Shown one piece after another: positions 1 through 15,458 of a DNA stretch of 64,000 nucleotides. This DNA is from an uncultured Acidobacteriota bacterium. GTDB lineage: Bacteria > Acidobacteriota > Thermoanaerobaculia > UBA5066 > Gp7-AA6. The translations under genes and the position numbers were made by a program. The notes under the pieces are model-generated. The model did no database searches. It worked only from the letters and a program-made list of their open reading frames with translations, and had not been told where the DNA came from. Where the stretch lies: the NCBI GenBank assembly GCA_963736455.1, contig CAVTON010000001.1, positions 778,270 to 842,269 on the forward strand. Direction: 5' to 3'. The first letter of the stretch is position 1. Each line of letters begins with the position of its first letter.

Positions 1-230
1 TCGCGGCGATCGAACGCCACGGCCTCGCCGTCGAGCAGCAGCGTCCGATCCCGCAGGCTCGCGACCGCATCGGCGATGGCGCGAAAGGAGTCGGTCCGGT
101 CCCTGGCGTTGCGAGAGAGAAGCCGGACCCGCGCACCCTCCTTGTACGCGAGGATCCGGTAGCCGTCGTACTTCTCCTCGAAGACCCATCCCGGCCGGTC
201 GAACGGCTCGCCGACGAGCGTCGCGAGCAT
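1..230 (-). CDS. ATP-dependent DNA ligase, N-terminal fragment (gene continues beyond window start)
   Basis: Reverse complement from ATG (228-230) reads MLATLVGEPFDRPGWVFEEKYDGYRILAYKEGARVRLLSRNARDRTDSF...; KYDGYR is the ligase adenylation motif I (KxDG). There is no stop in the window, so it is absent from the ORF track. Confidence 0.55.
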   Translation of the reverse strand, partial: MLATLVGEPFDRPGWVFEEKYDGYRILAYKEGARVRLLSRNARDRTDSFRAIADAVASLRDRTLLLDGEAVAFDRR

Positions 231-357
231 TGGCCGCGCGCGAAACGGGATCCGGTCGCTCACGCGGCTGTCTCGCCGCGGCCTCTTTTTCGACGCCCGG
301 CCCCCGCGACGCTCGGCCCGGCCGCGGACGCGGCGTTTTCTCGCCGCGAGGGTCGTC

Positions 358-377
358 TACAATGGAACGAATTCATG
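358..377 (+). promoter_or_regulatory. Candidate -10 element (TACAAT, 358-363) about 11 nt upstream of the ATG at 375; a short-leader or leaderless start for the glycosylation operon
   Basis: TACAAT hexamer in an otherwise GC-rich 145-nt divergent intergenic region between the partial ligase (start 230, minus) and the DUF2298 gene (375, plus). This is sequence-only inference. Confidence 0.25.
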
Positions 378-2546
378 CGGGACATTCTGGCATGGGCCCT
401 CGCGACCGAGCTGATGGGCCTCGCCGTCCTGCCGCTGCTGCGCTCCTTCTTCGGCAACCGCCGCGACGCGGCGCTCCTGTCGCGGCCGGTGGGTCTCGCC
501 ATCGTCGCCTACGTCGGCTGGCTCCTCTCGATTCTGACCACGTTCGGCTTCCGCCGATTCACGATGATCGCGGCCCTCGGAGCCATCGCGGCCGTCGCGC
601 TCGCCGTGCGCCGGCGATCGGACCTGGATTCCGTCGCCCGGGCGCCGTGGTGGGGCCACGAGGAGAAACTCGGCGCGATCGTCTTCTGGTCGGCTTCGGC
701 GGTGTTTCTCCTCATCCGGGCGGCGGGTCCCGCGATCCTCGGCGCGGAGAAGTTCATGGATCTCGCCTTTCTCAACTCGCTGTCGCGCTACTCCACGATG
801 CCGCCCGCCGACCCGTGGATGGCGGGAAAGACCATCAACTACTACTACTGGGGATACCTGCTCGCCGCCGCGCAGGCGAAGCTCGCCGGCGTCGCGCCGC
901 TCATCGCCTACAACCTCGCCATCGCGACCTTCGCCGGCTCCTCGTTCGCGGCCGCGACGTGCCTCGGCTTGCGCCTCTCGCGCGGGCGCCTCGCGGTCGG
1001 CCTCGCGGCGGGCGGCGGCGCGGTGTTCGCCGGGAACGTGGCGGGGGCCTACGACGCCTGGTCGGCGCCCTTCGCGACCGATTTCGACTACTGGCACGCC
1101 TCGCGGGTCATCGGCCCCGAGAATTTCAAGACGATCAACGAGTTTCCTTTCTTCACGTTCTTCCACGCGGACCTGCATCCTCACCTCCTCGCATTTCCGT
1201 TCTTCATCGCGGCCTTCGCGGTGGCCCATCGTTGGGTCGAAGACGAGAACGCCCGCGGGCTCCGTGCGTGGCCCGGCCTCCTTCTCGTCGCGCTCGTGGC
1301 CGGGACGGCCCGCGCGGCGAACTTCTGGAACCTGCCGGCGATGGCGATTCTGCTCGCGGTCGGAGGCGCCTTCACCGCGACGCGCGGCGCCCGTCTTCCC
1401 TCGGTCCGCCAGGCGATCCTCGGCGGCCTCGCCGGCTTCGGGGTCTTCGTCGCCTCGCTGCTGCTCTTCTATCCCTACACGTCCTCCTTCGCCCTCGCCC
1501 AGCGCGGGCTCGGCCGCGCCACGATGTCCTCCGACATCCTCGAGTTTCTCGGCGTGTGGGGGATTCTCGTCGCCGTCTGCGCGGTCGGCCTCTGGCCATG
1601 GCTCTCGGAGGACTCCGAGCCGGCCCGCCGCCGGCGCAACTTCGGCCTCGCGGCGGCCGCGGCGGTCTCGGTCTTCGGCGCCCTCGCCCTCGGCAAGCCC
1701 GCTCTGTCGATCGTTCTCTTCCTCGCGCTGCTCGCGGCAAGGGCGGCCTGGCGCTCCCTTCGCTCCGCCGACGACGACGGGCCCGGGGTGTACGCCGCGT
1801 TTCTCGTGCTCCTCGGCCTCGGGATGATCGGCGGCTGCGAGCTCGTCTACTTCAAGGACACGTACGGCGAGAACCTTCAGCGGATGAACACGCTCTTCAA
1901 GTTCTACCTCCAGGCCTGGCCGCTCCTCGCGATCGGCGGCGCCGTCTTCGCGGCGCGGGCGTGGGATGCGGTCGGACGACGGAGCCGCGTCTTTCGAGCG
2001 GCCCTCGGCCTCTGCGCGCTGCTCGCGGCGCTCTGGCCCATCAACGTCACGGTCTCGCGCCTGCGACAGAGGGATGCCCTGTTTTCTCTCGACGCGCACG
2101 GACCGCTCGTGCGCCGGAACAAGGGGGACGCGGCCGTGATCGACTGGCTGCTGGCCAACGCCAAAGTCGGATCGGTGGTGCTCGAGGCATCGGGCGACCC
2201 GTACTCCGAATACGCTCGGATCTCGTCGCATACCGGGATCCCGACGGTTCTCGGCTGGGGAAACCACGAGGGTCTCTGGCGCTCGACCGCGACGGCCGAA
2301 GATCCGGAGGTCGCCGAGCGCGCCGCCCGCGTCCGGCTCTTCTACACGACGCCGGACGCGCGTGCCGCGTGGGAGATCCTCCAGAAGTACGGCGTGACCT
2401 ACGTGGTCCTCGGCGACATGGAGCGGAAGACCTACGGGTCGAATCCGGCCACCGCGGCGTTCCCGTTCCTGTACCCGGTCTTCGCATCCAACGGCACGGT
2501 GATCTTCTCGGTCTCGCAGCCCCGGCCGGCCGCGCCGGCGCGATGA
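375..2546 (+). CDS. DUF2298 / 'Chlor_Arch_YYY' (TIGR03662-like) polytopic membrane protein
   Basis: 723-aa ORF with many hydrophobic helices and the signature TINYYYWGYLLAAAQAKLAG, NEFPFFTFFHADLHPHLLAFPF and a C-terminal periplasmic-type segment (VLEASGDPYSEYARISSHTGIPTVLGWGNHE). It is paralogous to the middle domain of the 5610-10526 gene. Confidence 0.75.
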   Translation: MRDILAWALATELMGLAVLPLLRSFFGNRRDAALLSRPVGLAIVAYVGWLLSILTTFGFRRFTMIAALGAIAAVALAVRRRSDLDSVARAPWWGHEEKLGAIVFWSASAVFLLIRAAGPAILGAEKFMDLAFLNSLSRYSTMPPADPWMAGKTINYYYWGYLLAAAQAKLAGVAPLIAYNLAIATFAGSSFAAATCLGLRLSRGRLAVGLAAGGGAVFAGNVAGAYDAWSAPFATDFDYWHASRVIGPENFKTINEFPFFTFFHADLHPHLLAFPFFIAAFAVAHRWVEDENARGLRAWPGLLLVALVAGTARAANFWNLPAMAILLAVGGAFTATRGARLPSVRQAILGGLAGFGVFVASLLLFYPYTSSFALAQRGLGRATMSSDILEFLGVWGILVAVCAVGLWPWLSEDSEPARRRRNFGLAAAAAVSVFGALALGKPALSIVLFLALLAARAAWRSLRSADDDGPGVYAAFLVLLGLGMIGGCELVYFKDTYGENLQRMNTLFKFYLQAWPLLAIGGAVFAARAWDAVGRRSRVFRAALGLCALLAALWPINVTVSRLRQRDALFSLDAHGPLVRRNKGDAAVIDWLLANAKVGSVVLEASGDPYSEYARISSHTGIPTVLGWGNHEGLWRSTATAEDPEVAERAARVRLFYTTPDARAAWEILQKYGVTYVVLGDMERKTYGSNPATAAFPFLYPVFASNGTVIFSVSQPRPAAPAR

Positions 2547-3691
2547 AGATCCTGATGGCGGTCGACTATTACCGACCGCACGTCTCGGGCCTCACGATCT
2601 ACGTCGAACAGCTGGCCGAGGGACTCGCCCGGCGCGGGCACGCGGTGCGCGTCCTCGCCCATCGCCACCAGCCGGATCTGCCGCTCGAATCGGACGAGAA
2701 CGGGGTCCGCGTCGTCCGCGCCCCCGTGGCCGCGCGAATCGGCAAGGCGCTCGTCTCTCCCGCGATCCTCGCCCGGGCGCTGCGGGAGATCCCGCGAGCG
2801 GACGTGCTTCACCTGCATGCGCCGCTCGTCAACGCCGTGCCGCTGGCGTTTCTCGGCGCGACGCTCCGGGTGCCGATCGTCGTGACCTTTCACTGCGACC
2901 TGCAGTCGCCCCACGGCATCGGCCAGCGCTTCGTCGAGGTTGTGGCGCGGACCTCCCAGAACTTCGCCCTCGACCGCGCCGCGCGCGTCATCACGTACAC
3001 GGAGGACTATGCCCGGCATACCCGGCCGCTCGACGACCGTCTCGAGAAGGTCGGCTGGATCCTTCCCCCGGTCGCCGACCCGCCCGTGACCGGCCGGAGC
3101 GCCGGGGAGGTCCGCGAGCGTCTCGGCGTGCGCGGATCTCCGGTCCTGCTCTTTCTCGGCCGCTTCACCGAGGAGAAGGGCCTCCCCGTGCTCGTCCAGG
3201 CGTTCGATGCCGTGCGACGACGATTTCCGAACGCGGCGCTGCTGCTCGCCGGCGCGAAGAACGTGCCGGGCGAGTCGGTCCTCGAGAGGATCGGTTCGCG
3301 GCTCGACGACCCCGGGTCGGGCGTGGTCGCACCGGGCATCGTGCCGCCCGGAGAGATCGCGGATCTCTTCACCATTTCGGACGTTCTCGTCCTGCCCTCG
3401 ATCAACGCGACCGAGTCCTTCGGGCTGGTCCAGGTCGAGGCCATGCTGCGCGGAGTCCCGTCCGTGGCCTCGGACCTGCCCGGCGTGCGCCAACCGGTCC
3501 AACTGACCGGAATGGGCGAGATCGCGCCGATCGGGGACGCCGCCGGCCTCGCCCGGCAGATTCTTCGGGTGCTGGAGACGCCGGCGCGCTATCGCCGCCC
3601 GCGCGAACAGATCCGGGCGCTCTTCGAGCCGGAACGCACGCTGCGGGAGTACGAGGTCGAGTACGCGACGGCCATGAAGGGGCAACGGTGA
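2543..3691 (+). CDS. Glycosyltransferase family 4 (GT4, GT-B fold)
   Basis: The in-frame ATG at 2543 overlaps the upstream stop (ATGA). MKILMAVDYYRPHVSGLTIYVEQLAEGLARRGHAV... has the GT4 N-terminal signature, and the C-terminal part has the EX7E-like region (INATESFGLVQVEAMLRGVP). The 230-2542 part of the 1153-aa ORF is an out-of-frame artefact. Confidence 0.8.
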   Translation: MKILMAVDYYRPHVSGLTIYVEQLAEGLARRGHAVRVLAHRHQPDLPLESDENGVRVVRAPVAARIGKALVSPAILARALREIPRADVLHLHAPLVNAVPLAFLGATLRVPIVVTFHCDLQSPHGIGQRFVEVVARTSQNFALDRAARVITYTEDYARHTRPLDDRLEKVGWILPPVADPPVTGRSAGEVRERLGVRGSPVLLFLGRFTEEKGLPVLVQAFDAVRRRFPNAALLLAGAKNVPGESVLERIGSRLDDPGSGVVAPGIVPPGEIADLFTISDVLVLPSINATESFGLVQVEAMLRGVPSVASDLPGVRQPVQLTGMGEIAPIGDAAGLARQILRVLETPARYRRPREQIRALFEPERTLREYEVEYATAMKGQR

Positions 3692-4503
3692 GGCCACCCG
3701 TTCCCGTCGAGCGGATCCTTCGCAGCCACCTGCGGGAAATGCCCCTTCACCGCGTCCTCATGCGCACCATCGAGGCGCAGATCCTGTCTCAGACCGATTT
3801 CGCGAGGCCGATCCTCGACGTGGGCTGCGGCGACGGGCACTTCGGTTCGGTTCTCTTTCCCGAAGGAGCCGACGTGGGCCTCGATCCGGGCCTCGCCGAC
3901 CTTGCGGAAGCGCGGGATCGGCGCGTCTATCGCTTCACGACGGCGGCCGACTCCGGCGCGATGCCCTTTGCCGACGGCGCATTCGGGTCCGTCGTCTCCA
4001 ACTGCGTCTTCGAACACATCCCCGAGATCGAGAAGACGATCGCCGAGATCGGCCGCGTTCTGAGGCCGGGGGGCACGTTCGCGACGACCCTCATCGGACA
4101 GCACTTCCGGGACTTCCTGACCGACGCGCGGGCCTGGCGCCGTCTCGGACTCTCGGCAGCGCATCGCGCCTACGTGGACTGGTTCAATCACAAGTCGGTT
4201 CACTTCCACTTCGACCCGCCCGAAATCTGGCGCGCGCGGTTCGAAGCGGCGGGCCTGGAGGTCGTGCGCTGGCGGTACTACATGTCGCCCGACGCCATGC
4301 ATGCCTTCCACCGATACCACTACACGAGCCTTCCCCATCTGGTCGCGCGCAAGCTGACGGGCCGGTGGGTGCCGCTGCCCGGGCTGATGGACAACGCGTT
4401 CTGGATCCAACGCCTGCGGCGCTGGGTCGACGAACCCGAGCCGGAGGCCGGAGCCTGCATCGCGTTCGTGTGTAGGAGAATGCCCCAATCTCCTGTAAAA
4501 TGA
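3688..4503 (+). CDS. Class I SAM-dependent methyltransferase (Methyltransf_11-like)
   Basis: The GTG start overlaps the GT4 stop (GTGA). ILDVGCGDGHF (motif I), FGSVVSNCVFEHIPE and LRPGGTF motifs are present. Confidence 0.8.
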   Translation: MRPPVPVERILRSHLREMPLHRVLMRTIEAQILSQTDFARPILDVGCGDGHFGSVLFPEGADVGLDPGLADLAEARDRRVYRFTTAADSGAMPFADGAFGSVVSNCVFEHIPEIEKTIAEIGRVLRPGGTFATTLIGQHFRDFLTDARAWRRLGLSAAHRAYVDWFNHKSVHFHFDPPEIWRARFEAAGLEVVRWRYYMSPDAMHAFHRYHYTSLPHLVARKLTGRWVPLPGLMDNAFWIQRLRRWVDEPEPEAGACIAFVCRRMPQSPVK

Positions 4504-4535
4504 TCGGCTTAGGCTAGTTTTTCGTTGACGAAAAC

Positions 4536-5603
4536 ATGCGATTTTTGATCACCGGCGGAGCCGGTTTCATCGGCTCGAACGCCGCCCGGCGACTCCGTGC
4601 CGAGAAGCACGACGTCGTCGTGCTGGATAGCTTCATGCGCCCCGCTTCCGTCTTCAACCGAGCGTGGCTCGAGGCCCTCGACCCGAAGATCCGGTTGATC
4701 GAAGGCGACGTCCGCGACTCCGCCGCCCTCGCCCGCGTGCTCGCCGAACCCTTCGACGCCGTGCTCCACCTGGCGGGCCAGGTCGCCGTGACGACGTCGA
4801 TCGTGGATCCGGTCACCGACTGGGAGATCAATGCCCTCGGAACGTTCCGCCTGCTCGAGGCCCTGCGCCGGCGATACGCCGACGCCCCGGAGAAGGCGCC
4901 CCTCCTCCTGTATGCCTCGACCAACAAGGTCTACGGCCACCTCTCGATGGGAGAGGTCGTTCGGGAGGGCCGCTGGGACTTCCGCAGCCTGCCCCAGGGC
5001 GTCTCCGAGACCGAGCCGCTCTCCTTCGAGTCGCCGTACGGCTGCTCGAAAGGCGCGGCCGACCAGTACGTCATCGATTACCACCGCAGCTTCGGCCTTC
5101 CGACGGTCGCCCTGAGGCAGTCGTGCATCTACGGTCCCCGCCAGTTCGGCGAGGAAGACCAGGGCTGGGTCGCCTGGTTCGCGCTGGCCGCGGCGTTCGG
5201 CCTCCCGATCACGTTCTACGGCGACGGCCTGCAGGTGCGGGACCTTCTCTGGGTGGACGATCTCGTCGCGCTGTATCTCGCCGCGGCGGCCGACCCGCAG
5301 AAGGTCGCCGGCCGCGCCTACAACGTCGGAGGCGGACCGGCCTTTCGCCTGTCGCTCAAGGAGCTGATGGTCCTCCTCGAGAAGAAGCTCGGCAAGCCGA
5401 TCCCGATCGGATCGGCGCCGGCGCGGCTCGGAGACCAGCCCGTTTTCTACTGCAACGTGGATCGCGCCGCGCAGGACCTCGGCTGGCGTCCCCGCGTTTC
5501 GCCGGACGAGGGCGTCGACCGGCTGCTTTCCTGGATCGGCGGGAGCCGGGAGGAGATCGGCCGCTTCCTGACCCGCAAGGGCCTGAAGATCGCGGCCCCC
5601 TAG
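4536..5603 (+). CDS. NAD-dependent epimerase/dehydratase (extended SDR) family sugar-nucleotide enzyme
   Basis: MRFLITGGAGFIGSN Rossmann motif and YGCSKGAADQY (the catalytic YxxxK); 355 aa. Confidence 0.85.
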   Translation: MRFLITGGAGFIGSNAARRLRAEKHDVVVLDSFMRPASVFNRAWLEALDPKIRLIEGDVRDSAALARVLAEPFDAVLHLAGQVAVTTSIVDPVTDWEINALGTFRLLEALRRRYADAPEKAPLLLYASTNKVYGHLSMGEVVREGRWDFRSLPQGVSETEPLSFESPYGCSKGAADQYVIDYHRSFGLPTVALRQSCIYGPRQFGEEDQGWVAWFALAAAFGLPITFYGDGLQVRDLLWVDDLVALYLAAAADPQKVAGRAYNVGGGPAFRLSLKELMVLLEKKLGKPIPIGSAPARLGDQPVFYCNVDRAAQDLGWRPRVSPDEGVDRLLSWIGGSREEIGRFLTRKGLKIAAP

Positions 5604-5609
5604 CCTCCC

Positions 5610-8600
5610 GTGCCCAACCGCATGTCCCGCGATCGCGCCCGCGCGATCCTCTTCCTCCTGCTGGCGGCGGGAGCGGTCCTGCGGTTCCAGGGCCTGAACT
5701 GGGACGACGGCCACCATCTGCATCCGGACGAGCGCTTCATCTCGATGGTCGAGGAGAAGCTCGCGTTCCCGAAGTCCGCCGCCGAGTACTTCGACGCGAA
5801 GCGTTCGACGCTCGACCCTTACAACCGCGGCGAAGGATCCTTCGTCTACGGCACGCTGCCGATCGTGGTCGCGAAGGTCATCGCCCCGCTCTTCGGCCGC
5901 CGCGGCTACGACGGCACCTACCTGATCGGCCGGGGTCTGTCCGCGCTATTCGACCTCTTCACGGTCTGGCTCGTTTACCGGATGGCGCGCCGATTCGCGC
6001 ATCGCCGCGCCTCGCTCGTCGCGGCCGCCCTCTCGGCTTTCTGCGTGCTCGGGATTCAGCTGTCCCACTTCTGGGCCGTGGACACCTTCCTCACGACGTT
6101 CACCGCGGCCGCGCTGCTCGGCTCGGTGCGCATCGCCCAGAGAAAGGCGGGCTGGGGCGGCTGGGCCTTGACGGGCGCCGCGATCGGCCTGGCCGTGGCG
6201 TGCAAGATCACCGCGCTCGCCCTGCTGCTGCCGCTCGGCGTCGCGGCGCTCGCCGGCGCCCTCCGGGAGAAGGACGGCTTCGGCGCGGGGTTTCTCCGGG
6301 CCGTTCCCCGCGTTCTCCTGGCGCTCGGCGCCGCCGCCGCGACCATCCGCGTCTTCCTTCCGCACATCTTTCTCGGCCCGAGCCCCCTTTCGTTCCGGCT
6401 CGATCCCCGCTGGATCGAGGACCTGCGGCGGCTGAAGGCGCTGACGAGCTCGGTCGCGGGCTTCCCTCCGGCCCTCCAGTGGGCGGGCCGAACGGTGCTC
6501 TTTCCGATCGAGAACCTCGTGCTCTGGGGAGCGGGCGTCTTCTTCGGCGTCACGGCGCTCGTCGCCCTCGCGTGGGCCTCCGCGGCCGTCTGGCGCCGCC
6601 GCGCCTGGGATCTCGCGCCGCTGTGCGCCTACGTCCTCTTCCTCTTCGCGTACCACGGGCTCACTCTCGTCAAGTCGATCCGCTATCTCTACCCCGCCTA
6701 CCCCGCGCTCGCGGTCCTCGCCGGCGTCTTGCTGTCGCGGTGGATCGAGAGCGCGCGCCGGCCGCGCCTGGCGCGCGCGACGGCCCTCGCCGTCGTCGGC
6801 GGGACCGCCCTGTGGGCGTTCGCCTTCACCGCGATCTACCGCCGTCCCCAGTCGCGCGTCACCGCCACGCGCTGGATCTACGCCCACGTCCCTCCGCGGG
6901 AGCGCATCGTCAACGAGTCGTGGGACGACGGTCTTCCCCTGCCCATGCCGGGTTACGACCCGGGCGTCTACTCGGGACCGCCGCAGCTTCCCCTTTTCGA
7001 CCCCGACTCGCGGGAGAAAGCGGAGATCCTCGTCCGCAGCCTCGCCGAGACCGACTGGGTCGCCGTCACGTCCAACCGCGTCTACGCCAACGTGACGCGG
7101 GTGCCCGATGTTTTCCCCATGTCGATCGCCTACTACCGCGCGCTCTTCGACGGCAGCCTCGGGTTCGATCGCGCCGCGGATTTCACGTCGTATCCCTCGC
7201 TCGGACCGCTCCGCTTCCCGGACGATCGGGCCGAGGAGCAGTTCACCGTCTACGACCACCCGCGGGTCCTGCTGTTCCACAAGACGGCGCGCTTCTCGAA
7301 GGAGGCCGCCCGCCGGCTCCTGCTTTCGGCGATCCCTCGGACGCCGCCCACGATGAACGAATGGGAGAAGTGGCCGCGGTCCCTGCGGCGCGTCAGCGCG
7401 CCCGTGCGCCCCGATCACCGGCCCGAGGCCGAGTCTTCGGCGCCTTCGGTCGAGCCGGGCGAGACGGCCGGAAGCTCGCTCTACGCCGCCGCCGCCTGGT
7501 ACCTCGCCCTCGCGCTCGTTGGCCTCCTCGCGTGGCCGATCGTCTGGACGCTCTTTCCCCGCCTCGGGGACCGGGGCTTCGGGCTCTCGCGCCTCCTCGG
7601 GCTCGTCTTCACGACGTACGCGATGACCGTCGCCGTCACGTTCCATGCGCTCGGCAACGGGCGCCGCGCGGCGCTCGGGTGCCTCGCCGTGCTCGCGATC
7701 GTTTCCGCGTGGATCGGGCTGCGCGAGCGCTACGATCTCGCGCGCTTTCTGCGCGAGAACCGGCGCGCGCTCCTTCAGAGCGAGATCGTCTTCGCCGTCG
7801 GATTCCTGCTCTTCCTGGGACTCCGCGCGCTGAACCCCGAAATCTACTGGGGCGAAAAGCCCATGGACTTCTCGATCCTGAACATCCTCGTGCGGACGCG
7901 GTCGCTTCCCGCTTCCGACCCGTGGCTCGCCGGCGCGCCCCTCGGCTATTACACGTTTGGCCAGGAGATGGTCGTCTTCCTGACGTTCCTGACGAACCTG
8001 TCCACGCGATTCACGTTCAACCTCGCGTTCGGATTCCTCGGGGGAACGATTCTCCAGGGCGCGTATTCGCTGGCCCGCAACTGGGGAGGGCGCCTCCGCG
8101 CCGGGATCGCGGGCGCCGGCCTGACCCTGCTTCTCGGAAACCTCTCGGGCCTGCGCGAGTGGCTCATCCACAAGCGCGCGCTCGACTGGGACTACTTCTG
8201 GGCGACCTCGCGGGTCGTCAAGGACACGATCAACGAGTACCCCTTCTGGAGCCTGAGCTTCGCCGATTTGCACGCCCACGTTCTGGCGATCCCGATCTTT
8301 CTCGCCTTCGCCACCGCGGCGCTCCACCTGGTGCGCCTGCACATGGCGCCGGCGACGGGAACGCGCCCGCGGCTCGTGGCGGCGGCGCTGCTCGGCTTTC
8401 TCGGGGCGGCGCAGGCCCTGACCAACGCCTGGGACGTGCCTCTGCTGGCAGGCCTGCTCGCGGTCACGGCCCTCGCCGCGGCGCTGGCGGCGCAGCGTTT
8501 CACCGTCGCCGGCGTCGGCCGGGCGCTCGGCGCGCTCGCGATCTCCGCGGCGTCCGGGTACCTGCTCGCCCGGCCGCTGTGGGTCCGGGCCGGCGGGGCG

Positions 8601-10526
8601 CCGGGAATCGGCCGCAACCTCGAGCCGTCGGCGTCCGGGATCGACCAGGCGACGGTCTTCGGCCTGTTCTTCTTCCTCGCCCTGGCGTGGTGGCTGGCCG
8701 CCTCCTCCGAGAAGCTCGCGGCGCGCGGCCTGGGCCGCGGGCCCCGGTGGACGATCGGACTCGTCACGTCGGCCGCCCTCGCCGCACTGCTGTTCCTGCG
8801 CCCGAACGTCTTTCTCGGATGCGGCGTCGCGCTCTTCCTCGCCGCGTTCTTCCTGCTCGCCGAGGACCGCGACGATCGCCTCGCCCTCGGCTTCCTCGCG
8901 ACGGCCTTCTTCCTGGTTCTCTTCTGCCAGCGCCTCTACATCTACGACCGGATGAACACGTTCTTCAAGCTCTACCTCGAGGCCTGGCTTCTCTTCGCGA
9001 TCGGCACGGCCGTCCTCGTGTTCCGGCGCAACCGCCGCGGCATCCTGGACCGGTGGATCGTACCGGCGCGGGCGGCGGCGGTCCTGCTCGCCGCCGCGGC
9101 TCTCTTCACGAGCGCCACGGCCGGGCGAGCCGCCGTCAGCCGCCATTTCGCGCCGTACGGCGGACCGACGCTCGACGGCCTCCGTTATCTCGAGACGTTC
9201 CATCCCGGCGAGTCGCGCGCCGTGGCGTGGCTCCGGCGCAGCGTCGCCGGCACGCCGGTCATTCTCGAAGCGCAGGGTCCCTCCTACCAGGACTTCGCCC
9301 GCATCTCGATGCTGACGGGTCTGCCGACCGTCCTCGGATGGGACTACCACGTCAAGCAGCGCGGCAACGCCGAGTCCGAGATCGAGTCTCGCCGCCAGGC
9401 CGTCCGGGCCATGTACTCCGATCCGAACGCGGCCCGGATCGAGAGCCTCCTCGCGCGCTACCGCGTCGGCTACGTGTACGTCGGCTGGCTCGAGAAAAAG
9501 ACGTATCCGCCGGCCGGACTGCAGAAGTTCCGGACGGACCAGGAGCGATTCCAGAGCGTCTACGAGAACCCCGAGGCGCAGGTCTACCGCGTCGTCGGCG
9601 GACCGGCCCAGGACGTGCTCCTCCCGGCCAGGGAGGCGCTGCCGGAAACCTCGGCCGGCGCCCCCGCCCCGCCCGAGGACGAGCCCGAGGAGCGGCCCGC
9701 CATCCAGGCCGCCGCCGAGCCCGGCGCCGCGGCGTGGCCGAACCTGCACGAGCCTCGCGGCGCGGCCGTGGACGACCGCGGCCGGATCTGGATCGCGGAC
9801 TTCGGCCATTCGCGCCTGCGCGTCTTCGATCCCGATGGCGGCTTCCTCGGCGGATGGGGCGGCCGCGGCGCGGGCGAGTTCGGCTTCAAGGAGCTCTGCG
9901 GCGTCGCGATCCGGGGGGACGCGCTGTACGTCGCCGACACCTGGAACGGGCGCATCCAGGCCTTCACCGTCGAGGGGGTCCTGCGCGCCACGGCCGGCGA
10001 GCTCTACGGGCCCCGCGGAATCACGGTCGCCCCGGACGGCCGAGTCTGGGTCAGCGACACCGGCAACCACCGCGTGGTCTCCTTCGACGCGCTCCTCCAG
10101 GACCGGCACTCGTACGGACACAAGGGCGCCGGCCCGGGCGAATTCTCGAGCCCGACCGGCATCGCGGCCTCGCCATCCGGCGAGATCTACGTCGGAGACA
10201 CCGGGAATCGGAGGGTCCAGGTGCTCGGCGCGGACGGGACTCTCCGCGGCGCGTTCCCGTTCCCCGGTTGGGGCCCGAACGTCGAGCCGCACCTCGCGGT
10301 CGACGCGGACGGGACGCTGTGGGCCACGGACCCCGGAACGAACTCCGTCGTGGCGCTCGACTCCTCCGGCAAGCTCCTGCGCCGGATCGACGCCGACGCC
10401 GCCGGACAGAAGTTCTCGAATCCCACGGGTATCGCGATCGACAGGAAAAACCGTATCCTCTATGTCGTCAACTCCGGAAACGCTTCGGTTTCGAAGATTC
10501 CGCTCGGCGAGAGGAGGGCTTCTTGA
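5610..10526 (+). CDS. Giant 1638-aa membrane protein: N-terminal GT-C fold (PMT_2/GT39-like) glycosyltransferase module + DUF2298 'YYY' module + C-terminal NHL-repeat beta-propeller
   Basis: The N-terminus has a DE motif in the first loop (HLHPDERF) and PMT_2-like helices. The middle has LGYYTFGQEMVVF ... INEYPFWSLSFADLHAHVLAIPIF, paralogous to gene 375-2546. The C-terminus (about 9740-10520) has repeated NHL units (GRIWIADFGHSRLRVFDPDG; LYVADTWNGRIQAF; VWVSDTGNHRVVSF; IYVGDTGNRRVQVL). GTG start at 5610 (ATG alternative at 5622). Confidence 0.75.
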   Translation: MPNRMSRDRARAILFLLLAAGAVLRFQGLNWDDGHHLHPDERFISMVEEKLAFPKSAAEYFDAKRSTLDPYNRGEGSFVYGTLPIVVAKVIAPLFGRRGYDGTYLIGRGLSALFDLFTVWLVYRMARRFAHRRASLVAAALSAFCVLGIQLSHFWAVDTFLTTFTAAALLGSVRIAQRKAGWGGWALTGAAIGLAVACKITALALLLPLGVAALAGALREKDGFGAGFLRAVPRVLLALGAAAATIRVFLPHIFLGPSPLSFRLDPRWIEDLRRLKALTSSVAGFPPALQWAGRTVLFPIENLVLWGAGVFFGVTALVALAWASAAVWRRRAWDLAPLCAYVLFLFAYHGLTLVKSIRYLYPAYPALAVLAGVLLSRWIESARRPRLARATALAVVGGTALWAFAFTAIYRRPQSRVTATRWIYAHVPPRERIVNESWDDGLPLPMPGYDPGVYSGPPQLPLFDPDSREKAEILVRSLAETDWVAVTSNRVYANVTRVPDVFPMSIAYYRALFDGSLGFDRAADFTSYPSLGPLRFPDDRAEEQFTVYDHPRVLLFHKTARFSKEAARRLLLSAIPRTPPTMNEWEKWPRSLRRVSAPVRPDHRPEAESSAPSVEPGETAGSSLYAAAAWYLALALVGLLAWPIVWTLFPRLGDRGFGLSRLLGLVFTTYAMTVAVTFHALGNGRRAALGCLAVLAIVSAWIGLRERYDLARFLRENRRALLQSEIVFAVGFLLFLGLRALNPEIYWGEKPMDFSILNILVRTRSLPASDPWLAGAPLGYYTFGQEMVVFLTFLTNLSTRFTFNLAFGFLGGTILQGAYSLARNWGGRLRAGIAGAGLTLLLGNLSGLREWLIHKRALDWDYFWATSRVVKDTINEYPFWSLSFADLHAHVLAIPIFLAFATAALHLVRLHMAPATGTRPRLVAAALLGFLGAAQALTNAWDVPLLAGLLAVTALAAALAAQRFTVAGVGRALGALAISAASGYLLARPLWVRAGGAPGIGRNLEPSASGIDQATVFGLFFFLALAWWLAASSEKLAARGLGRGPRWTIGLVTSAALAALLFLRPNVFLGCGVALFLAAFFLLAEDRDDRLALGFLATAFFLVLFCQRLYIYDRMNTFFKLYLEAWLLFAIGTAVLVFRRNRRGILDRWIVPARAAAVLLAAAALFTSATAGRAAVSRHFAPYGGPTLDGLRYLETFHPGESRAVAWLRRSVAGTPVILEAQGPSYQDFARISMLTGLPTVLGWDYHVKQRGNAESEIESRRQAVRAMYSDPNAARIESLLARYRVGYVYVGWLEKKTYPPAGLQKFRTDQERFQSVYENPEAQVYRVVGGPAQDVLLPAREALPETSAGAPAPPEDEPEERPAIQAAAEPGAAAWPNLHEPRGAAVDDRGRIWIADFGHSRLRVFDPDGGFLGGWGGRGAGEFGFKELCGVAIRGDALYVADTWNGRIQAFTVEGVLRATAGELYGPRGITVAPDGRVWVSDTGNHRVVSFDALLQDRHSYGHKGAGPGEFSSPTGIAASPSGEIYVGDTGNRRVQVLGADGTLRGAFPFPGWGPNVEPHLAVDADGTLWATDPGTNSVVALDSSGKLLRRIDADAAGQKFSNPTGIAIDRKNRILYVVNSGNASVSKIPLGERRAS

Positions 10527-13216
10527 GCGAACCCGCGGCGGCGGCCTCGGACCCTGCACGGCTGTCGGCCCGGGTCCTCCTGTTCATCGCGACGCTGGCC
10601 GTCGCCGCCGCCCTCACGCGCTTCTGGGCGCTCGGGGACCGGCCGCTTCACCACGACGAGTCGATCCATGCCTACCAGTCGTACACGCTCTCGAAGGGCG
10701 GCGACTGGCGCTACGACCCGGCCTACCACGGTCCGTTCCTCTACTACCTCAACGCCCTCGTCTACAAGATTGCGGGCGCCTCGAACGTCACGGCGAGAAC
10801 GATGCCGGCCATCTTCGGCCTGATCCTGATCGCGTTCGCGTGGCCCCTGAGGCGGTGGATCGGGAACGGCGCGGCGGCCGTCTATGCCGTCTTCGTCCTG
10901 CTCTCGCCCCACTTTGCCTACTTCTCGCGCTTCATCCGGGAGGACCTCTATTCGCTCGTGTTCACTCTCGGCACGATCGTCGCCTTCCAGCGGTTCCTCG
11001 AAACGGACCGCTCGAAGTGGCTGATGCTCTCGGCCACGGCGTTCGCGTTCGCCGGCGTGACCAAGGAGAACGCCTACATGACGGGCGTTCTCTTCGTCGT
11101 CTACGGCGTGTGGTGCGCCCTCCGCGGCGCGGGCACCGCGGAAGGACCCCGCCCGGGCCAGGCCGTGGGACGGGCGCTATCGTGGGTGCTGGAGCGGATC
11201 GTCCCGATTCTTTCGGCGGCGCTGCTCTTCCTGGTCATCTGGGCTGGCATGTACTCGGCCTTCGGGAAGTACCCGGGCGACTGGCTCGCGATTCCGAAGG
11301 CGATCAAGTACTGGATGGGCCAGCACTCGATCGCCCGGATCCCCGGTCCCTGGTACTACTACTTCCCGCAGCTCTTCTTCTACGACACGGCGATCGTCTT
11401 CGCCGCCCTCTTCGCATTCTCGCGGCGCCAGTGGAAGACGGATCCGTTCCTGCGCGTGCTCGCGCGCTCGGCGGGGCCGATCGTCGCGTACCTCGTCCTG
11501 CGCCGGTTCGTTCCGGTGTTCGCGCCCCGTGCGATGGTCTGGATTGCGGTCATCGTCGTCGCCACCCTGATCCTGACACTGCGGCGCCCGAGCGCCGAGC
11601 CCGGCGGCCTGACGCCCTTCGTGCAGTTCATCGCCTTCTGGACCGTGGGCTCGCTCGCGATCTATGGCTGGGCCCGCGAGAAGGTGCCCTGGCTCACGGT
11701 CCACCCGCTGCTTCCCCTGACCATGCTCGCCGGGCTCGGCGTCGTCCGGCTCTGGTCGCAGCGCCGGCGCGCCTGGGCCGCGATCGCCCTCGCCGTCACC
11801 ATGCTCTTCGCCGTGGTCAACACGCGCGGGGCGTATCTGGCCTGCTTCCGGTACGGCGCGCACGACGTCGAGAAAGAGCCCGGGCACGCCGAGCTGCTCG
11901 CCTACGTTCAGACGACGAGGGACCTCGTCCGCGCGCTCCGGTCGGTCGAGATCGCGAAGGCGCGCATCCCCGCCGGTCAGCCGGTCGTGACCGTCGTCGG
12001 CGAGGCCGTGTGGCCGCTGACCTGGTACCTGAGGGACGACAACGTCACGTGGGCCTCGCGCATCGATCAGGCCTCGACACCCGTCATCATCGCCGACTGG
12101 GACCCGGAAGGGACGCTCGAAAAGCAGCTCGCGCCCAAGTACGACGCCAAACGGGTGCCGATCCGAGCCTGGTGGTTCCCGGACCCGCTCAAGGAGGGAA
12201 ACCTCGAGCGCCCCACGGTCGGCGACTGGCTGAGGCTATGGTGGGACCACCAGATCTGGGGAACGATCGGTTCCCAGGACGCGACGTTCTTCGTCCGCAA
12301 GGACCTCGCGGGCTCGGGTCCTCTCGAGCCGCTCCAGTTGACCGTGCAGGACACGTCCTCGCGCGACTACCCGGGCGAGGCGACGGAGCTGCCCGCGCCG
12401 CGTTCGATCGGGGTGGCGGGCAACGGACCGGCCCAGTTCGCGGAGCCGCGCGGCGTGGCGACGGACCCGAGCGGCAACGTCTACGTCGCCGACACGAAGA
12501 ACAGCCGCATCGAAGTCCTGGACGCCGCCGGCAACTTCCTGCGCGCGTTCGGGACGAAGGGCCCCGGTGACGGCCAGCTGAACGAGCCGTGCGGCGTCGC
12601 CGTCGGCCCCAATGGCGACGTCTACGTGGCCGACACGTGGAACCATCGCGTCGCGCGCTTCGGACCGGACGGGCAGTGGCGGGGCGCATGGGTCGATCCC
12701 GAGCGGGGCTTCTTCGGCCCGCGCGGCCTCACGCTCTCCGGCGGCTCGCTCTACGTCTCGGACACCGGAAACAAACGCATCGTCCGCTTCGACACCGCGA
12801 CGGGATCGGTGACCGGCCGCTGGGGCGGCGCCGGCTCCGGGCCGAGCCAGTTCGTCGAGCCCGTCGGTCTCGCGGCGGACCCGTCCGGCCGCATCTACGT
12901 CGCCGACACCGGAAACCACCGGATCCAGGTCTTCGACGCGGACGGCAAGTTCCTTCGCCAGTTCCCGGTCTTCGGCTGGAAAGACTTCTACACCGAGCCG
13001 TACCTCACGATCGGGCCATCCGACGCCGTGTTCGCGACCGACTCCTGGAAGGGGCGGATCGCGCAGTACGACGCGTCGGGGGCGCTCGTCCGCTCCTACA
13101 AGGCGGACGGACTGAAGCGTCCGACCGGGATCACGCGGGACGCCTTCGGACACGTGATCGTCACCGACCGCGACATGAACCGCGTCTTCATCTGGCCGAT
13201 CGACGCGTTTCGCTAA
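10523..13216 (+). CDS. TIGR03663-like GT-C fold (PMT_2 family) membrane glycosyltransferase fused to a C-terminal six-bladed NHL-repeat domain
   Basis: The only start downstream of the in-frame stop (TGA 9832-9834) is TTG at 10523, preceded by GGAGG and overlapping the upstream stop (TTGA). HHDESIHAYQSYTLSKGGDWRYDPAYHGPFLYY has the GT-C DE motif. From about 12440 there are NHL repeats (NVYVADTKNSRIEVLD; VYVADTWNHRVARF; LYVSDTGNKRIVRF; IYVADTGNHRIQVF). The upstream part of the 2850-aa ORF (4664-10522) is an alternative-frame artefact. Confidence 0.75.
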   Translation: MSEPAAAASDPARLSARVLLFIATLAVAAALTRFWALGDRPLHHDESIHAYQSYTLSKGGDWRYDPAYHGPFLYYLNALVYKIAGASNVTARTMPAIFGLILIAFAWPLRRWIGNGAAAVYAVFVLLSPHFAYFSRFIREDLYSLVFTLGTIVAFQRFLETDRSKWLMLSATAFAFAGVTKENAYMTGVLFVVYGVWCALRGAGTAEGPRPGQAVGRALSWVLERIVPILSAALLFLVIWAGMYSAFGKYPGDWLAIPKAIKYWMGQHSIARIPGPWYYYFPQLFFYDTAIVFAALFAFSRRQWKTDPFLRVLARSAGPIVAYLVLRRFVPVFAPRAMVWIAVIVVATLILTLRRPSAEPGGLTPFVQFIAFWTVGSLAIYGWAREKVPWLTVHPLLPLTMLAGLGVVRLWSQRRRAWAAIALAVTMLFAVVNTRGAYLACFRYGAHDVEKEPGHAELLAYVQTTRDLVRALRSVEIAKARIPAGQPVVTVVGEAVWPLTWYLRDDNVTWASRIDQASTPVIIADWDPEGTLEKQLAPKYDAKRVPIRAWWFPDPLKEGNLERPTVGDWLRLWWDHQIWGTIGSQDATFFVRKDLAGSGPLEPLQLTVQDTSSRDYPGEATELPAPRSIGVAGNGPAQFAEPRGVATDPSGNVYVADTKNSRIEVLDAAGNFLRAFGTKGPGDGQLNEPCGVAVGPNGDVYVADTWNHRVARFGPDGQWRGAWVDPERGFFGPRGLTLSGGSLYVSDTGNKRIVRFDTATGSVTGRWGGAGSGPSQFVEPVGLAADPSGRIYVADTGNHRIQVFDADGKFLRQFPVFGWKDFYTEPYLTIGPSDAVFATDSWKGRIAQYDASGALVRSYKADGLKRPTGITRDAFGHVIVTDRDMNRVFIWPIDAFR

Positions 13217-13223
13217 AGGCGCG

Positions 13224-15458
13224 ATGTCGAGCGTCCGCCGTTCCGACCCTGCCGCCGTAGATCCGCACCACTGGGCGTTGCTCGCCGCGACCGCGCTCCT
13301 CGCGTCCGTCGGTCCGGCGATCGTGGTCGCGGACCGCTGGTTCTCCCGGCGCAACACCGTCACGTTCCTGACCGCATTCGCGGATCGCTTCCCGTGGCTC
13401 GCCGACATCAACCTCCCTGTCTACGCGGCCGTCTTCGCGGCGGCGTTCGTGATTCTCGTCGCGCTGGCGGGACTTCGCCCTTCGGCGGGCCTTTCCGCCT
13501 GGAGGAACCGGATCGCCTTCGCCGAACGGCCGCGGCGCCCGAGTGCCCGCGGCCGCCAGCGGTCGCTGGCGACCTGGGTGGCCCTGTGCGGAGGAGCGGC
13601 AGCCACGCTGCTCTTCGCCCGCGTCGTGGTCGCGGGACGGATCCCCGGTCCGGGTCTCCTCACGGCGCTCGCGGCCCTCGGATTCGGCATGCTGCTGCGC
13701 GAGGTCTCGCTCGGCGCCCTCCGCCGTTTGTGGAACCGCAAGCGCGCCAATGTCGTCTCCATCGTCGCCGCCCACGTCACCACCATCCTCGCCTTCGCGA
13801 GCGTCCACACGTATCACCGCTTCGAGCGGCCGCTGATCGCCCTCGCCGTCCTGGCCGCCGCGAATCTCGCGGCACGCTGGAAGAAGACGGGACCCATCCC
13901 GCTGCTCGTTCTGGCCGCCGTCGTCCTCTATCTGTGGCGAATCGATTCCTGGTGGTTTGCGCTCGTGGGCGACGAGTACCGCAACTTCGACATCGCCTCG
14001 CTGATCCTGAAGCAGCACGACCGCGCCTACGTGCTTTCGCACCTCTTCCAGCTCGAAGGCGGACTCGAAGGCCTCGACCCCTACGCCTGTTCCCTCGTGC
14101 AGGCGGCCTCGATGCGACTGCTCGGCGTCAACAGCTTCGGCTGGAGGTTCAGCAGCCTCTACTGCGCGGCCCTGGCGCTGCCTTTCTTCTTCCGCTTCCT
14201 GCGGACCTTTCTCTCGCGGCGCGCGACGCTCGCGACGACCGTCGTGATGGCCGCGTCGCACTACATCATCGCCTTCGGCAAGATCGGCTACGACAAGTTC
14301 CAGGCGTATCTCGCCATGGCAATGCTCCTCGCCGCGGCGGCGTGCGCCGTGCGGACGCGCCGCATGATCGCCTTCGTGGGACTGGGATTCTCGGCGGCCC
14401 TCTGCTTCTACGTCTATCCCGCGGCGCTCTACGTCCTCCCGCTGCCCGCCTTTCTCCTGCTTCTCTACGTCCCCCCGAAGAGCCGCGCGGCGCTGGCCCG
14501 ATGGGGGATGGCGGGCCTCGTCTGCGCGCTGACGATCTTCCCTCTCCCCTTCCAGCCGACCTATTTCCCCGGCAAGAGGCCCGGCACCGTCTACTACAAC
14601 CCCGAGCTCATGAGCTCGACGAGCCGGCTCGTCCGCCATTTCTGGTCGAACGGCGTCTACGCCGCCTATTCGCCGGTCCTCCTCGGCTCCGAGGACCACT
14701 TCGTCACCAGCTCCTACCTCGACCCGCTGGCGGGGGCCCTCTTTCTCGTCGGAATCGCCTCGGCGCTCTGGCTCGTCCGGCGGGACCGCTTCGTCGCGTT
14801 TCTCGTCGTCAGCCTCGGATTCCTGCTGCTGCTCGGCGGCACGACGCACGACCGCGAATACCCGCCCACGACGCGTTTCTTCCTGCTGGTGCCCCTCTTC
14901 TGCATGATCGCGACCGCCGGGCTGTGGCGCCTCTTCGGACTGGCCGGCGAGAGCCGCTTCTCGACTCGGGCGCCCCGCGTCGCCCTGGCCGTGGTCCTTC
15001 TCGCCATCGTGACCCTCAACGTCGTCCAGGCCCATGTCGTGTCGGTCCGGCGCAGCGACGGCTACCAGGTCCTCGATCCCCTCGTGGTCCGTCTCGCGAC
15101 GCGCGCCGAAACCCTGCCTCCGGGACAACGGCCCCGGCTCGTCATGCTGGCGCCGGCCGCCACCGACGGCGACGGCATCGTCGTGATGCTCGGCGTCTAC
15201 GATCTGAAGGAGTCGGCCAGGCGGTTCGCGACCGTCGGGCTCGGCGCCGATGACTCGGGATTCCCCGAGCCGGCTCTCCTTTCGGAGCGGGACGCGGCGA
15301 TCTTCGTGGCTCCGCAGGTCCCCGCGCGGGCCCGGGCGCGCCTCGAGGGCGCGCTCGGTGCGGCCGGACGGGTCCCCTGCGCCGTGCGCACGACGACGGG
15401 CCAGGAGCGCTTCCGGCTCTGGACGTTTCCGGGCACGCCTTCGCTCTGCGCGGACTGA
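13224..15458 (+). CDS. Polytopic membrane protein, probable GT-C fold glycosyltransferase (ArnT/PMT_2-like)
   Basis: 744 aa with more than 10 predicted TM helices and an early-loop VGDEYRNF motif; last gene of the plus-strand island, 8 nt after the previous stop. Family assignment is by motif resemblance only. Confidence 0.55.
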   Translation: MSSVRRSDPAAVDPHHWALLAATALLASVGPAIVVADRWFSRRNTVTFLTAFADRFPWLADINLPVYAAVFAAAFVILVALAGLRPSAGLSAWRNRIAFAERPRRPSARGRQRSLATWVALCGGAAATLLFARVVVAGRIPGPGLLTALAALGFGMLLREVSLGALRRLWNRKRANVVSIVAAHVTTILAFASVHTYHRFERPLIALAVLAAANLAARWKKTGPIPLLVLAAVVLYLWRIDSWWFALVGDEYRNFDIASLILKQHDRAYVLSHLFQLEGGLEGLDPYACSLVQAASMRLLGVNSFGWRFSSLYCAALALPFFFRFLRTFLSRRATLATTVVMAASHYIIAFGKIGYDKFQAYLAMAMLLAAAACAVRTRRMIAFVGLGFSAALCFYVYPAALYVLPLPAFLLLLYVPPKSRAALARWGMAGLVCALTIFPLPFQPTYFPGKRPGTVYYNPELMSSTSRLVRHFWSNGVYAAYSPVLLGSEDHFVTSSYLDPLAGALFLVGIASALWLVRRDRFVAFLVVSLGFLLLLGGTTHDREYPPTTRFFLLVPLFCMIATAGLWRLFGLAGESRFSTRAPRVALAVVLLAIVTLNVVQAHVVSVRRSDGYQVLDPLVVRLATRAETLPPGQRPRLVMLAPAATDGDGIVVMLGVYDLKESARRFATVGLGADDSGFPEPALLSERDAAIFVAPQVPARARARLEGALGAAGRVPCAVRTTTGQERFRLWTFPGTPSLCAD

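Follow-up and report, generated by a model that had tools for sequence, protein, structure and literature searches.

A plus-strand cluster of seven genes

We analysed 64,000 nucleotides (nt) of DNA, called the window throughout, from an uncultured Acidobacteriota bacterium of the Thermoanaerobaculia (GTDB lineage UBA5066; Gp7-AA6): positions 778,270 to 842,269 of the forward strand of contig CAVTON010000001.1, assembly GCA_963736455.1. Its left part holds seven closely packed plus-strand genes, several of them for large polytopic proteins with predicted glycosyltransferase (GT) modules of the GT-C fold. Facing them is a minus-strand operon whose products resemble enzymes that make polyprenyl-phosphate-linked sugars. 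The plus-strand genes, labelled g1 to g7, are as follows.

g1, 375-2546, plus strand: 723 amino acids (aa), DUF2298/TIGR03662 ("YYY") membrane protein with a predicted GT-C fold and an AglB-like C-terminal globular domain
g2, 2543-3691, plus strand: 382 aa, cytoplasmic GT4 (GT-B) glycosyltransferase; start overlaps the g1 stop (ATGA)
g3, 3688-4503, plus strand: 271 aa, class I S-adenosylmethionine (SAM)-dependent methyltransferase; GTGA overlap with g2
g4, 4536-5603, plus strand: 355 aa, extended short-chain dehydrogenase/reductase (SDR), nearest to CDP-tyvelose 2-epimerase
g5, 5610-10526, plus strand: a single 1638-aa chain of three modules
g5 module 1 (aa 1-410), 5610-6839, plus strand: PMT_2-like GT-C module with HPDER after the first transmembrane (TM) helix
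g5 module 2 (aa 626-1328), 7485-9593, plus strand: DUF2298/TIGR03662, 33% identical to g1 and with the same motifs
g5 module 3 (aa ~1374-1638), 9729-10526, plus strand: NHL-repeat beta-propeller
g6, 10523-13216, plus strand: 897 aa, TIGR03663 (Agl23 family) membrane module plus NHL propeller; TTGA overlap with g5
g7, 13224-15458, plus strand: 744 aa, predicted accessory GT-C enzyme; ArnT/ALG-like core after ~six extra helices, GDE at 249-251

Because long spurious open reading frames are common at the ~70% GC of the window, a plot of third-codon-position GC was used for calling the frames. The called frames of all seven genes had third-position GC of 0.84-0.94 and zero internal stops. The seven genes listed in an initial annotation of this DNA, made from its letters and a list of open reading frames, were thereby borne out, as were the three translational-coupling overlaps reported there (ATGA at 2543, GTGA at 3688 and TTGA at 10523). 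Between the other genes lie gaps of 32, 6 and 7 nt, and identical start/stop overlaps were called in a relative ~90-93% identical. The same annotation spoke of an island. As a name for a gene cluster this is apt, but not in the sense of a compositionally distinct or horizontally acquired segment: GC content stays at 0.67-0.72 throughout the window and the flanking ligase gene is also syntenic in relatives. We therefore rejected horizontal acquisition and regard the cluster as a vertically inherited core locus. Neither an Rfam scan of the window nor a promoter scan gave a match.

Domains, fold and acidic motifs of the membrane modules

Hidden Markov model searches against Pfam and NCBIfam upheld every domain call of the initial annotation. 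For g1, Pfam DUF2298 scored 325 bits (cut-off 27.8) and TIGR03662 scored 501 bits (cut-off 300). The fusion of PMT_2, TIGR03662 and NHL parts in the 1638-aa g5 chain was confirmed, with PMT_2 at aa 110-216 (55.9 bits, Pfam), TIGR03662 at aa 626-1328 (444 bits, cut-off 300; Pfam DUF2298 270 bits, cut-off 27.8) and Pfam NHL repeats at ~aa 1374-1634, which match NHL propellers in the PDB down to 2e-34. In g6, TIGR03663 covers aa 22-509 (323.5 bits against an NCBIfam cut-off of 126), Pfam PMT_2 also exceeds its cut-off (49 bits), and the NHL propeller at aa 627-890 matches a TRIM71-type NHL structure at 1e-63. The five large polytopic modules thus stand as first described, namely two DUF2298, one PMT_2-like, one TIGR03663 and the ArnT-like g7, of which g7 is marginal: its PMT_2 score of 28.6 barely passes the cut-off of 26.1. 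A sequence search of the PDB gave no match for g1 or g7; for g5 and g6 it returned NHL propellers only, with no relatives for the membrane parts.

We obtained confident AlphaFold2 models of g1 (pLDDT 86) and g7 (pLDDT 91), both with pTM 0.91. The polytopic core superposes on solved GT-C enzymes. Foldseek matched the g1 model to DPY19 (4e-8) and AglB (2.6e-6), and the g7 model showed the same pattern, with ALG12 at 15.8 and ArnT at 14.5. AftA, AftB and AftD were also among the structural matches, at fold level. By these predicted structures, g1 and g7 have the GT-C fold. The same fold in the g5 N-terminal module and g6 would follow from Pfam PMT_2 membership, and in the g5 DUF2298 module from its 33% identity to g1.

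Conserved residues were read from family alignments of 43 g1 relatives, 35 g6 relatives and 47 g7 relatives. The g1 motif E125-K-x-M-D129 (EKFMD in g1 itself) is invariant in its 43 relatives, and the pairwise alignment of g5 module 2 with g1 returned EKPMD, DPW, TINEYPF, ADLHAH and RMNT. In a more diverse DUF2298 alignment (28-37% identity) the few invariant positions included E125, D146 (DPW), E256 (TINE), H268, R503/N505 (RMNT), K509 and H631-E632, a pattern typical of an enzyme. The YYYxG motif, N155-YYYWG-160 in g1, is invariant in the g1 family; the g5 DUF2298 module reads YYTFG only, and the middle Y is the sole invariant of the motif in the diverse alignment. The first g5 module carries HPDER at 38-42 (D40-E41). 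In g6, HHDESIH at 43-49, which includes D45 and E46, is invariant in 35 sequences, as are H69-G70-P71, R33 and R40; g6 therefore has the hallmarks by which TIGRFAMs describes TIGR03663, namely the invariant DE and HGP and a pair of Arg residues close to the N-terminus. In g7, all 47 sequences keep G249 and D250, and at least 90% keep E251.

An early-loop D/E motif had been claimed for each module. All of them do carry an acidic motif, but only g6 and the N-terminal module of g5 have it early. In DUF2298 it comes after the fourth helix and in g7 after about the seventh; these two have three and ~six extra helices before the GT-C core, respectively. The hydropathy profile of g6, with ~13 hydrophobic segments, fits an ArnT-like N-in/C-out topology, so the NHL propeller would be periplasmic. 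Judged by fold homology and by loop charge, the latter a weak signal, the acidic motifs may face the periplasm.

The three smaller genes among the GT-C modules were confirmed by Pfam as the GT4, the SAM methyltransferase and the NAD sugar epimerase of the initial annotation. The g2 protein has Glycos_transf_1 and Glyco_trans_4_4 domains; among solved structures it comes closest to mycobacterial PimA (1.3e-18), with the match confined to the C-terminal half. Methyltransf_11/23/25 matched g3. Epimerase matched g4, which is closest in the PDB to 9rl0 (1.2e-85) and 1orr (9e-77) and reaches GalE/RmlB only at ~1e-35. A C2 epimerase, as g4 may be, encoded beside a putative phosphoribose-lipid synthase could in principle turn ribofuranose (Ribf) into arabinofuranose (Araf) with one enzyme, without DprE1/DprE2.

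A convergent operon with a probable role in lipid-linked donor synthesis

Three overlapping genes on the opposite strand run towards the cluster.

h6, 20185-21129, minus strand: 314 aa, UbiA-superfamily protein, homologue of mycobacterial decaprenyl-phosphate phosphoribosyltransferase (DPPRS/PPPRS)
h5, 19392-20195, minus strand: 267 aa, GT2 without a predicted TM helix; overlaps the 3' end of the UbiA gene by 11 nt
h4, 18037-19395, minus strand: 452 aa, homologue of eukaryote-type UDP-galactopyranose mutase (UGM); start overlaps the GT2 stop by 4 nt

The three best NCBIfam models for h6 are all DPPRS models, at 182, 180 and 140 bits (all below their cut-offs). The protein aligns over its full length with the Mycobacterium tuberculosis DPPRS structure 8j8j (2.9e-34), and the NDxxDxxxD motif is conserved. 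The best NCBIfam match of h5 is NF041391 (haloarchaeal dolichyl-phosphate hexose transferase), whose cut-off of 375 bits it misses with a score of 80; its best PDB relatives are ArnC (6e-15), Pyrococcus DPMS (3e-14) and GtrB, all of them polyprenyl-phosphate glycosyltransferases. The full-length PDB matches of h4 are to eukaryotic enzymes, the Trypanosoma cruzi UGM 4dsg (1.6e-95) and the Aspergillus fumigatus UGM (~5e-94), and no bacterial Glf structure occurred among its PDB matches at E <= 0.01.

Between this operon and g7 lie three further minus-strand genes.

h3, 17158-17958, minus strand: secreted protein with a C-terminal S-layer homology (SLH)-like domain; paralogue of h2
h2, 16255-17061, minus strand: secreted protein with a C-terminal SLH-like domain; paralogue of h3
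h1, 15496-16059, minus strand: predicted lipoprotein of ~187 aa with LSLPGC, an Ala/Pro/Ser linker and a C-terminal domain

The SLH scores of the h2/h3 pair are 29.6 and 31.9 bits, and the two share the SLH-like tail ...FGDVPTTD.G.QYIEAL..SGIT.GCGGGNYCP... Terminator-like hairpins stand at 17132-17109 and 16228-16211: h2 and h3 are each followed by the same hairpin, CGGCCTTCGGGCCGGCCG, and a T-rich tail. Searches of Pfam, NCBIfam and the PDB gave no match to h1. In 29 of 48 related loci (the sample is described below) a homologue is encoded close to g6, sometimes on the g6 strand.

Conservation of the locus

A scan for the g6 family, with one genome per GTDB species, returned 552 relatives. 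The loci analysed were those of the best 80, which come from uncultured Acidobacteriota/Thermoanaerobaculia metagenome-assembled genomes (MAGs) and from nine MAGs of a "Binatia group" (labelled Candidatus Binatia, delta proteobacterium or Bacterium HR30). The closest g6 relative among these 80 is ~91% identical. Synteny was determined by tblastn of the window proteins in 53 Acidobacteriota loci with enough upstream sequence and in 48 with at least 9 kb downstream of g6. Upstream, g5 was found in 51-53 of the 53 loci, g1 in 46 and g2 in 44; g3 occurred in 28, as did g4. In 50 of 59 related loci all three g5 modules shared a single frame without stops. Downstream, the GT2 gene was present in 45 of the 48 loci, UbiA in 42 and UGM in 39, and all three occurred together in 36. 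This trio is the most conserved part of the locus, at 71-96% identity, above the GT-C genes; h4 spans that same 71-96% across Thermoanaerobaculia species. It follows g6 directly in several species and lies 2-6 kb away in others, and the intervening genes vary. The syntenic core in species-level relatives is therefore g1, g2, g5, g6 and the trio, and g7 is accessory (6 of 48 loci). The initial annotation had suggested comparing gene neighbourhoods for co-occurrence with polyprenyl-phosphate sugar synthases. This comparison was positive: the trio sits in the same window and is syntenic in most related species.

In the Binatia MAGs, the neighbours of the g6-like genes are small GT2 genes and a gene for a PMT-like GT-C protein; DUF2298, UbiA and UGM are all missing there. 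One such locus (L075, 3724-13662, Candidatus Binatia) encodes a TIGR03663 plus NHL protein 35% identical to g6, whose gene has as neighbours three small GT2 genes, a GFO/IDH/MocA oxidoreductase gene and a gene for an 884-aa PMT-like GT-C protein. Among the Acidobacteriota loci, L066 has an AI-2E-family permease gene (PF01594; 16649-17794, minus strand) between the UbiA and GT2 genes, and the UbiA-GT2 spacing of 2.1-2.3 kb in L041, L052 and L069 suggests the same arrangement. The permease is a candidate lipid-sugar flippase. In a 93%-identical relative (L002, 1766-4684) a 393-aa PMT_2 protein and two methyltransferases are encoded ~8 kb upstream of g1; their counterparts here would fall before the window start.

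DUF2298 and TIGR03663 families at large

At E <= 1e-3 and 50% identity, DUF2298 comprises 6420 representatives, many of them multi-module proteins of 1400-2700 aa, so fusion is a habit of this family. The initial annotation had read the fusion architecture as a pointer to a dedicated machine; the fusion is real, but such architectures are common in the family. We examined the neighbours of DUF2298 in 45 diverse metagenomic loci of at least 12 kb (GC 0.29-0.70). TIGR03663-like genes were found in 22 of them, PMT_2-like genes in 20, small GT2 genes in 15 and NHL repeats in 11, and the general module is thus DUF2298 plus TIGR03663 plus GT2.

TIGR03663 now bears the name of Haloarcula hispanica Agl23 (PMC11182771). 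Agl23 is a putative flippase for the hexose-phosphate-dolichol made by the GT2 Agl22 (PMC11182771, citing Lu 2020), and in purified form it moves M5GN2-PP-Dol across liposome membranes; it also rescues yeast rft1 (PMC11182771). Within the family, such activity has been demonstrated solely for this H. hispanica protein. The earlier remark that TIGR03662 and TIGR03663 proteins have no demonstrated substrate accordingly still applies to TIGR03662/DUF2298, but no longer to TIGR03663, for which these genetic and in vitro flipping data exist. Within the cluster, g6 is the only member from a family with flippase data.

A proposed extracytoplasmic glycosylation system

We consider it fairly probable that the genes at 375-15458 (plus strand) and 18037-21129 (minus strand) form a conserved Thermoanaerobaculia machine for extracytoplasmic glycosylation from polyprenyl-monophosphate-linked donors. 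The donors probably include furanoses, and the product is most likely a cell-envelope glycan made outside the cytoplasm. As such, the locus is an uncharacterised variant within the known class of extracytoplasmic, polyprenyl-phosphate-sugar-dependent glycosylation systems. The view that it serves periplasmic glycan or protein glycosylation, put forward in the initial annotation, gains support from the donor-synthesis homologues in the conserved neighbouring operon. That interpretation was essentially right; it was out of date on TIGR03663 and incomplete in extent, as the segment 375-15458 holds the genes named there but not the full system, to which the convergent operon also belongs.

In the pathway that we envisage, h6 at the cytoplasmic face would transfer phosphoribose from phosphoribosyl pyrophosphate (PRPP) to polyprenyl phosphate, as its homology to DPPRS suggests. 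The h5 protein would make a polyprenyl-phosphate hexose; since its gene is translationally linked to the UGM gene h4, this hexose may be galactofuranose (Galf). Products of g4, g3 and g2 may diversify the donors or build a cytoplasmic primer. The lipid-linked sugars would then reach the periplasmic leaflet, perhaps via g6. There, all five GT-C modules, two of them in g5 and one each in g1, g6 and the accessory g7, would pass the sugars to an envelope acceptor, with the invariant acidic residues of their loops as the presumed catalytic groups. The NHL propellers and AglB-like C-terminal domains may serve as periplasmic acceptor-binding modules. A glycan, a lipoglycan and a protein are all conceivable as acceptor, and the sole clue to it is that the secreted neighbours carry Ala/Pro/Ser/Thr-rich linkers; h2 and h3 are possible glycosylation acceptors.

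Several observations weigh against this proposal. The AlphaFold2 models cover g1 and g7. Profile-profile comparisons of the DUF2298, g7 and TIGR03663 families were non-significant (probability <6%), so the relatedness of the three GT-C families rests on fold rather than sequence. Loop-charge (positive-inside) counts on the AlphaFold2 helices fit periplasmic acidic loops, and they are weak and noisy. The scores of both h6 and h5 lie under the NCBIfam equivalog cut-offs. Domain scans found no HAD or PAP2 domain, as expected of a phosphatase for polyprenyl-phosphate-ribose-5-phosphate, in the genes at 1-26316, and no GtrA, MATE or SMR-type flippase in the cluster. DprE1/DprE2 are likewise absent among the window genes scanned, as are matches to FAD_binding_4 and Arabinose_trans. 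UGM was not detected in those relatives' loci that have the AI-2E permease between UbiA and GT2. The link to the UbiA and UGM genes is also lineage-specific: of the 45 diverse DUF2298 loci, 2 have UbiA-like genes and 3 have UGM-like genes, the latter all weak matches; because they are so rare there, we see the phosphoribose and furanose genes as a Thermoanaerobaculia addition. In the searchable literature, DUF2298 and TIGR03662 have passing mentions only and no tested member, and no activity, product or acceptor is reported for the cluster proteins.

A more specific version of the proposal is that the system builds a furanose-rich, arabinogalactan-like envelope polymer (Galf plus Ribf or Araf) in a Gram-negative-type bacterium. 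DUF2298 would then be an unclassified GT-C glycosyltransferase family of very large size whose C-terminal domain resembles that of oligosaccharyltransferases, and DUF2298, an Agl23-type protein and a small GT2 would make up an ancient module for extracytoplasmic glycosylation in Archaea, Chloroflexi and Acidobacteria. To this module Thermoanaerobaculia would have recruited a PRPP-dependent polyprenyl-phosphoribose synthase, a eukaryote-type UGM and a single-enzyme C2-epimerase in place of DprE1/DprE2, possibly with polyprenyl-phosphate-galactofuranose as a donor; in the literature that we searched, no donor of this kind is reported. Taken jointly, this whole set of claims is unlikely to be correct. 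We also considered furanose donors as the general substrate of DUF2298 and rejected the idea, given the rarity of UbiA and UGM near DUF2298 outside Thermoanaerobaculia.

The locus gives DUF2298 a testable context, with a predicted GT-C fold, invariant candidate catalytic residues and genes for lipid-linked donors nearby. It also bears on the unsettled question of whether Agl23-type proteins are flippases, transferases or both, as g6 shows the Agl23 family with an intact catalytic-type loop and a propeller predicted to be periplasmic. If the furanose polymer were real, an arabinogalactan-like biosynthetic logic would exist outside Actinobacteria, in abundant uncultured soil Acidobacteria.

Alternative readings of the locus

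The foremost alternative is protein glycosylation, in which the GT-C modules would act like PMT or oligosaccharyltransferase (OST) enzymes on secreted envelope proteins, such as h1, h2 and h3. In its favour, PMT and OST enzymes are the closest structural neighbours of g1, which also has an AglB-like C-terminal domain and, in TINE, a TIXE-like motif. At the level of sequence, however, little of this similarity is seen. In a permissive Pfam scan of 43 DUF2298 members, STT3 had no match at E <= 10, PMT had three weak matches, and DUF6541 had three matches. PMT itself (PF02366) matched none of the window proteins, its matches being to some g6 relatives and, weakly, to those 3 of 43 g1 relatives. 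The WWDYG (WWD.G) motif was not found in g1 or g5, nor was a Pfam MIR domain found in any cluster protein. We did not accept DUF2298 as an OST on these grounds, the resemblance being structural only. Furthermore, the SLH genes h2 and h3 are variable neighbours, present in only 12-15 of 48 loci, and five GT-C modules with at least two donor pathways suit the building of a polymer equally well or better. We regard a protein acceptor as possible but doubtful.

Our proposal also assigns catalysis to g6 and to the DUF2298 modules. Alternatively, g6 could be purely a flippase or scramblase, and DUF2298 could have another role within the GT-C fold, as a polymerase, ligase, scaffold or lipid-carrier recycler. 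The Agl23 data described above concern flipping, but g6 retains the invariant DE and the HGP loop of catalytic GT-C enzymes, and its extramembrane domain of ~450 aa with a propeller would be superfluous for a flippase. For DUF2298, the E, D, E, H, R and K residues that stay invariant across the family in predicted loops are enzyme-like. We judge this alternative improbable.

It could further be argued that the two convergent operons are unrelated and that the UbiA-GT2-UGM trio serves, for example, O-antigen or capsule synthesis. They are indeed on opposite strands, as separate transcription units with three variable genes and their own terminators between them, and UbiA and UGM are absent from most DUF2298 loci outside Thermoanaerobaculia. 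Yet their adjacency survives rearrangement, with all three trio genes kept in 36 of 48 loci, a GT2 gene abuts g6-like genes in a second phylum too, and the trio encodes exactly the class of donor that GT-C enzymes need. An unrelated trio is thus, in our view, very improbable.

Least credible of all, and highly unlikely, is lipid A or lipopolysaccharide-core modification of the ArnT/ArnC type in a diderm acidobacterium, as domain scans found no ArnA, ArnB, ArnD, ArnE or ArnF genes, the ArnT-like g7 is the least conserved member (6 of 48 loci), and a propeller and C-terminal domains of such size point to macromolecules as acceptors.

Relation to known systems

The closest described logic to that of the proposed glycosylation machine is found in the "three-component" pentofuranose systems of Citrobacter youngae O1/O2, which combine a polyprenyl phosphoribose synthase (PPPRS) with a flippase and a GT-C glycosyltransferase (Kelly et al. 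2024; PMC11127046), and in which an SDR epimerase changes the pentofuranose (PMC11127046). Common to both are a UbiA-type synthase, a cytoplasmic SDR epimerase (optional there) and a GT-C protein that uses the polyprenyl-phosphate sugar and carries an additional binding domain in the periplasm (PMC11127046), features that are predicted for the present locus. The present locus differs in that its synthase lacks a fused phosphatase domain and that there is no MATE flippase. It has five GT-C modules of the DUF2298, TIGR03663 and PMT_2-like kinds in place of one GT136, with a GT2 synthase and a UGM besides. It is also a stand-alone conserved locus, whereas the Citrobacter systems are add-ons for O-antigen side chains.

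Mycobacterial arabinogalactan and lipoarabinomannan assembly employs the UbiA/DPPRS protein Rv3806c, Glf, GlfT2, PimA, and Emb and Aft GT-C enzymes. The acidobacterial locus resembles it in clustering a DPPRS homologue, UGM, GT2 and GT4 with several GT-C enzymes that have (here predicted) periplasmic accessory domains. In contrast to the mycobacterial pathway, it has no DprE1/DprE2, Arabinose_trans (Pfam) or Emb-type family, its GT2 is short and ArnC/DPMS-like rather than GlfT2-like, its UGM is of the eukaryotic type, and its host is a Gram-negative-type acidobacterium.

With the Agl22/Agl23 pair of H. hispanica the locus shares a g6 that passes TIGR03663, an h5 whose best family match is a haloarchaeal dolichyl-phosphate hexose transferase, and a GT2 gene that accompanies g6-like genes, here in two bacterial phyla. 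It differs in the NHL propeller added to g6, in the h5 score far under the equivalog cut-off, and in the carrier, which would be a bacterial polyprenol. PMT (GT39), ArnT (GT83) and STT3-AglB-PglB (GT66) enzymes share with the cluster the overall GT-C fold and an acidic motif opening the first long loop outside the cytoplasm (a placement predicted here), and AglB further shares the C-terminal globular domain of DUF2298. The sequence similarity to PMT, ArnT and STT3 is absent or marginal, however; DUF2298 and g7 have extra N-terminal helices, and the cluster proteins lack the MIR domains and WWDYG of PMT and STT3. GtrA/GtrB/GtrC O-antigen glucosylation follows a similar order, in which a GT2 makes a polyprenyl-phosphate hexose that is flipped and then transferred by a GT-C enzyme outside the cytoplasm. 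The cluster differs in having no GtrA, an h5 without the C-terminal TM helices of GtrB, and many more GT-C modules, which belong to other families.

Other genes in the window

Divergent from the UbiA gene, at 21131-25062 (plus strand; gene starts provisional), are genes for an asparagine-synthase-like protein, a radical SAM protein and an FAD protein. The radical SAM protein is RaSEA-like (75 bits), and the FAD protein matches the geranylgeranyl-reductase family (61 bits) and is also halogenase-like. The asparagine-synthase-like gene adjoins UbiA in 11 of 48 loci. At 27703-31071 (plus strand) lies a gene for a 1122-aa LigD with phosphoesterase, ligase and primase-polymerase parts and ~300 extra N-terminal residues. 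The flanking ligase gene mentioned above, at 3-356 (minus strand), encodes a second ATP-dependent DNA ligase; the start of the window truncates this gene, which diverges from g1 and keeps its place in relatives. Further on, the minus strand at 35254-43951 carries glycogen/alpha-glucan genes, for a GH77 4-alpha-glucanotransferase, a DUF3417 phosphorylase-like protein, a GH57 plus DUF3536 protein and a GlgB-like branching enzyme. The plus strand at 46096-51885 encodes a 1929-aa fusion of a Ser/Thr kinase, an AAA_16 ATPase and two SBP_bac_5 solute-binding domains.

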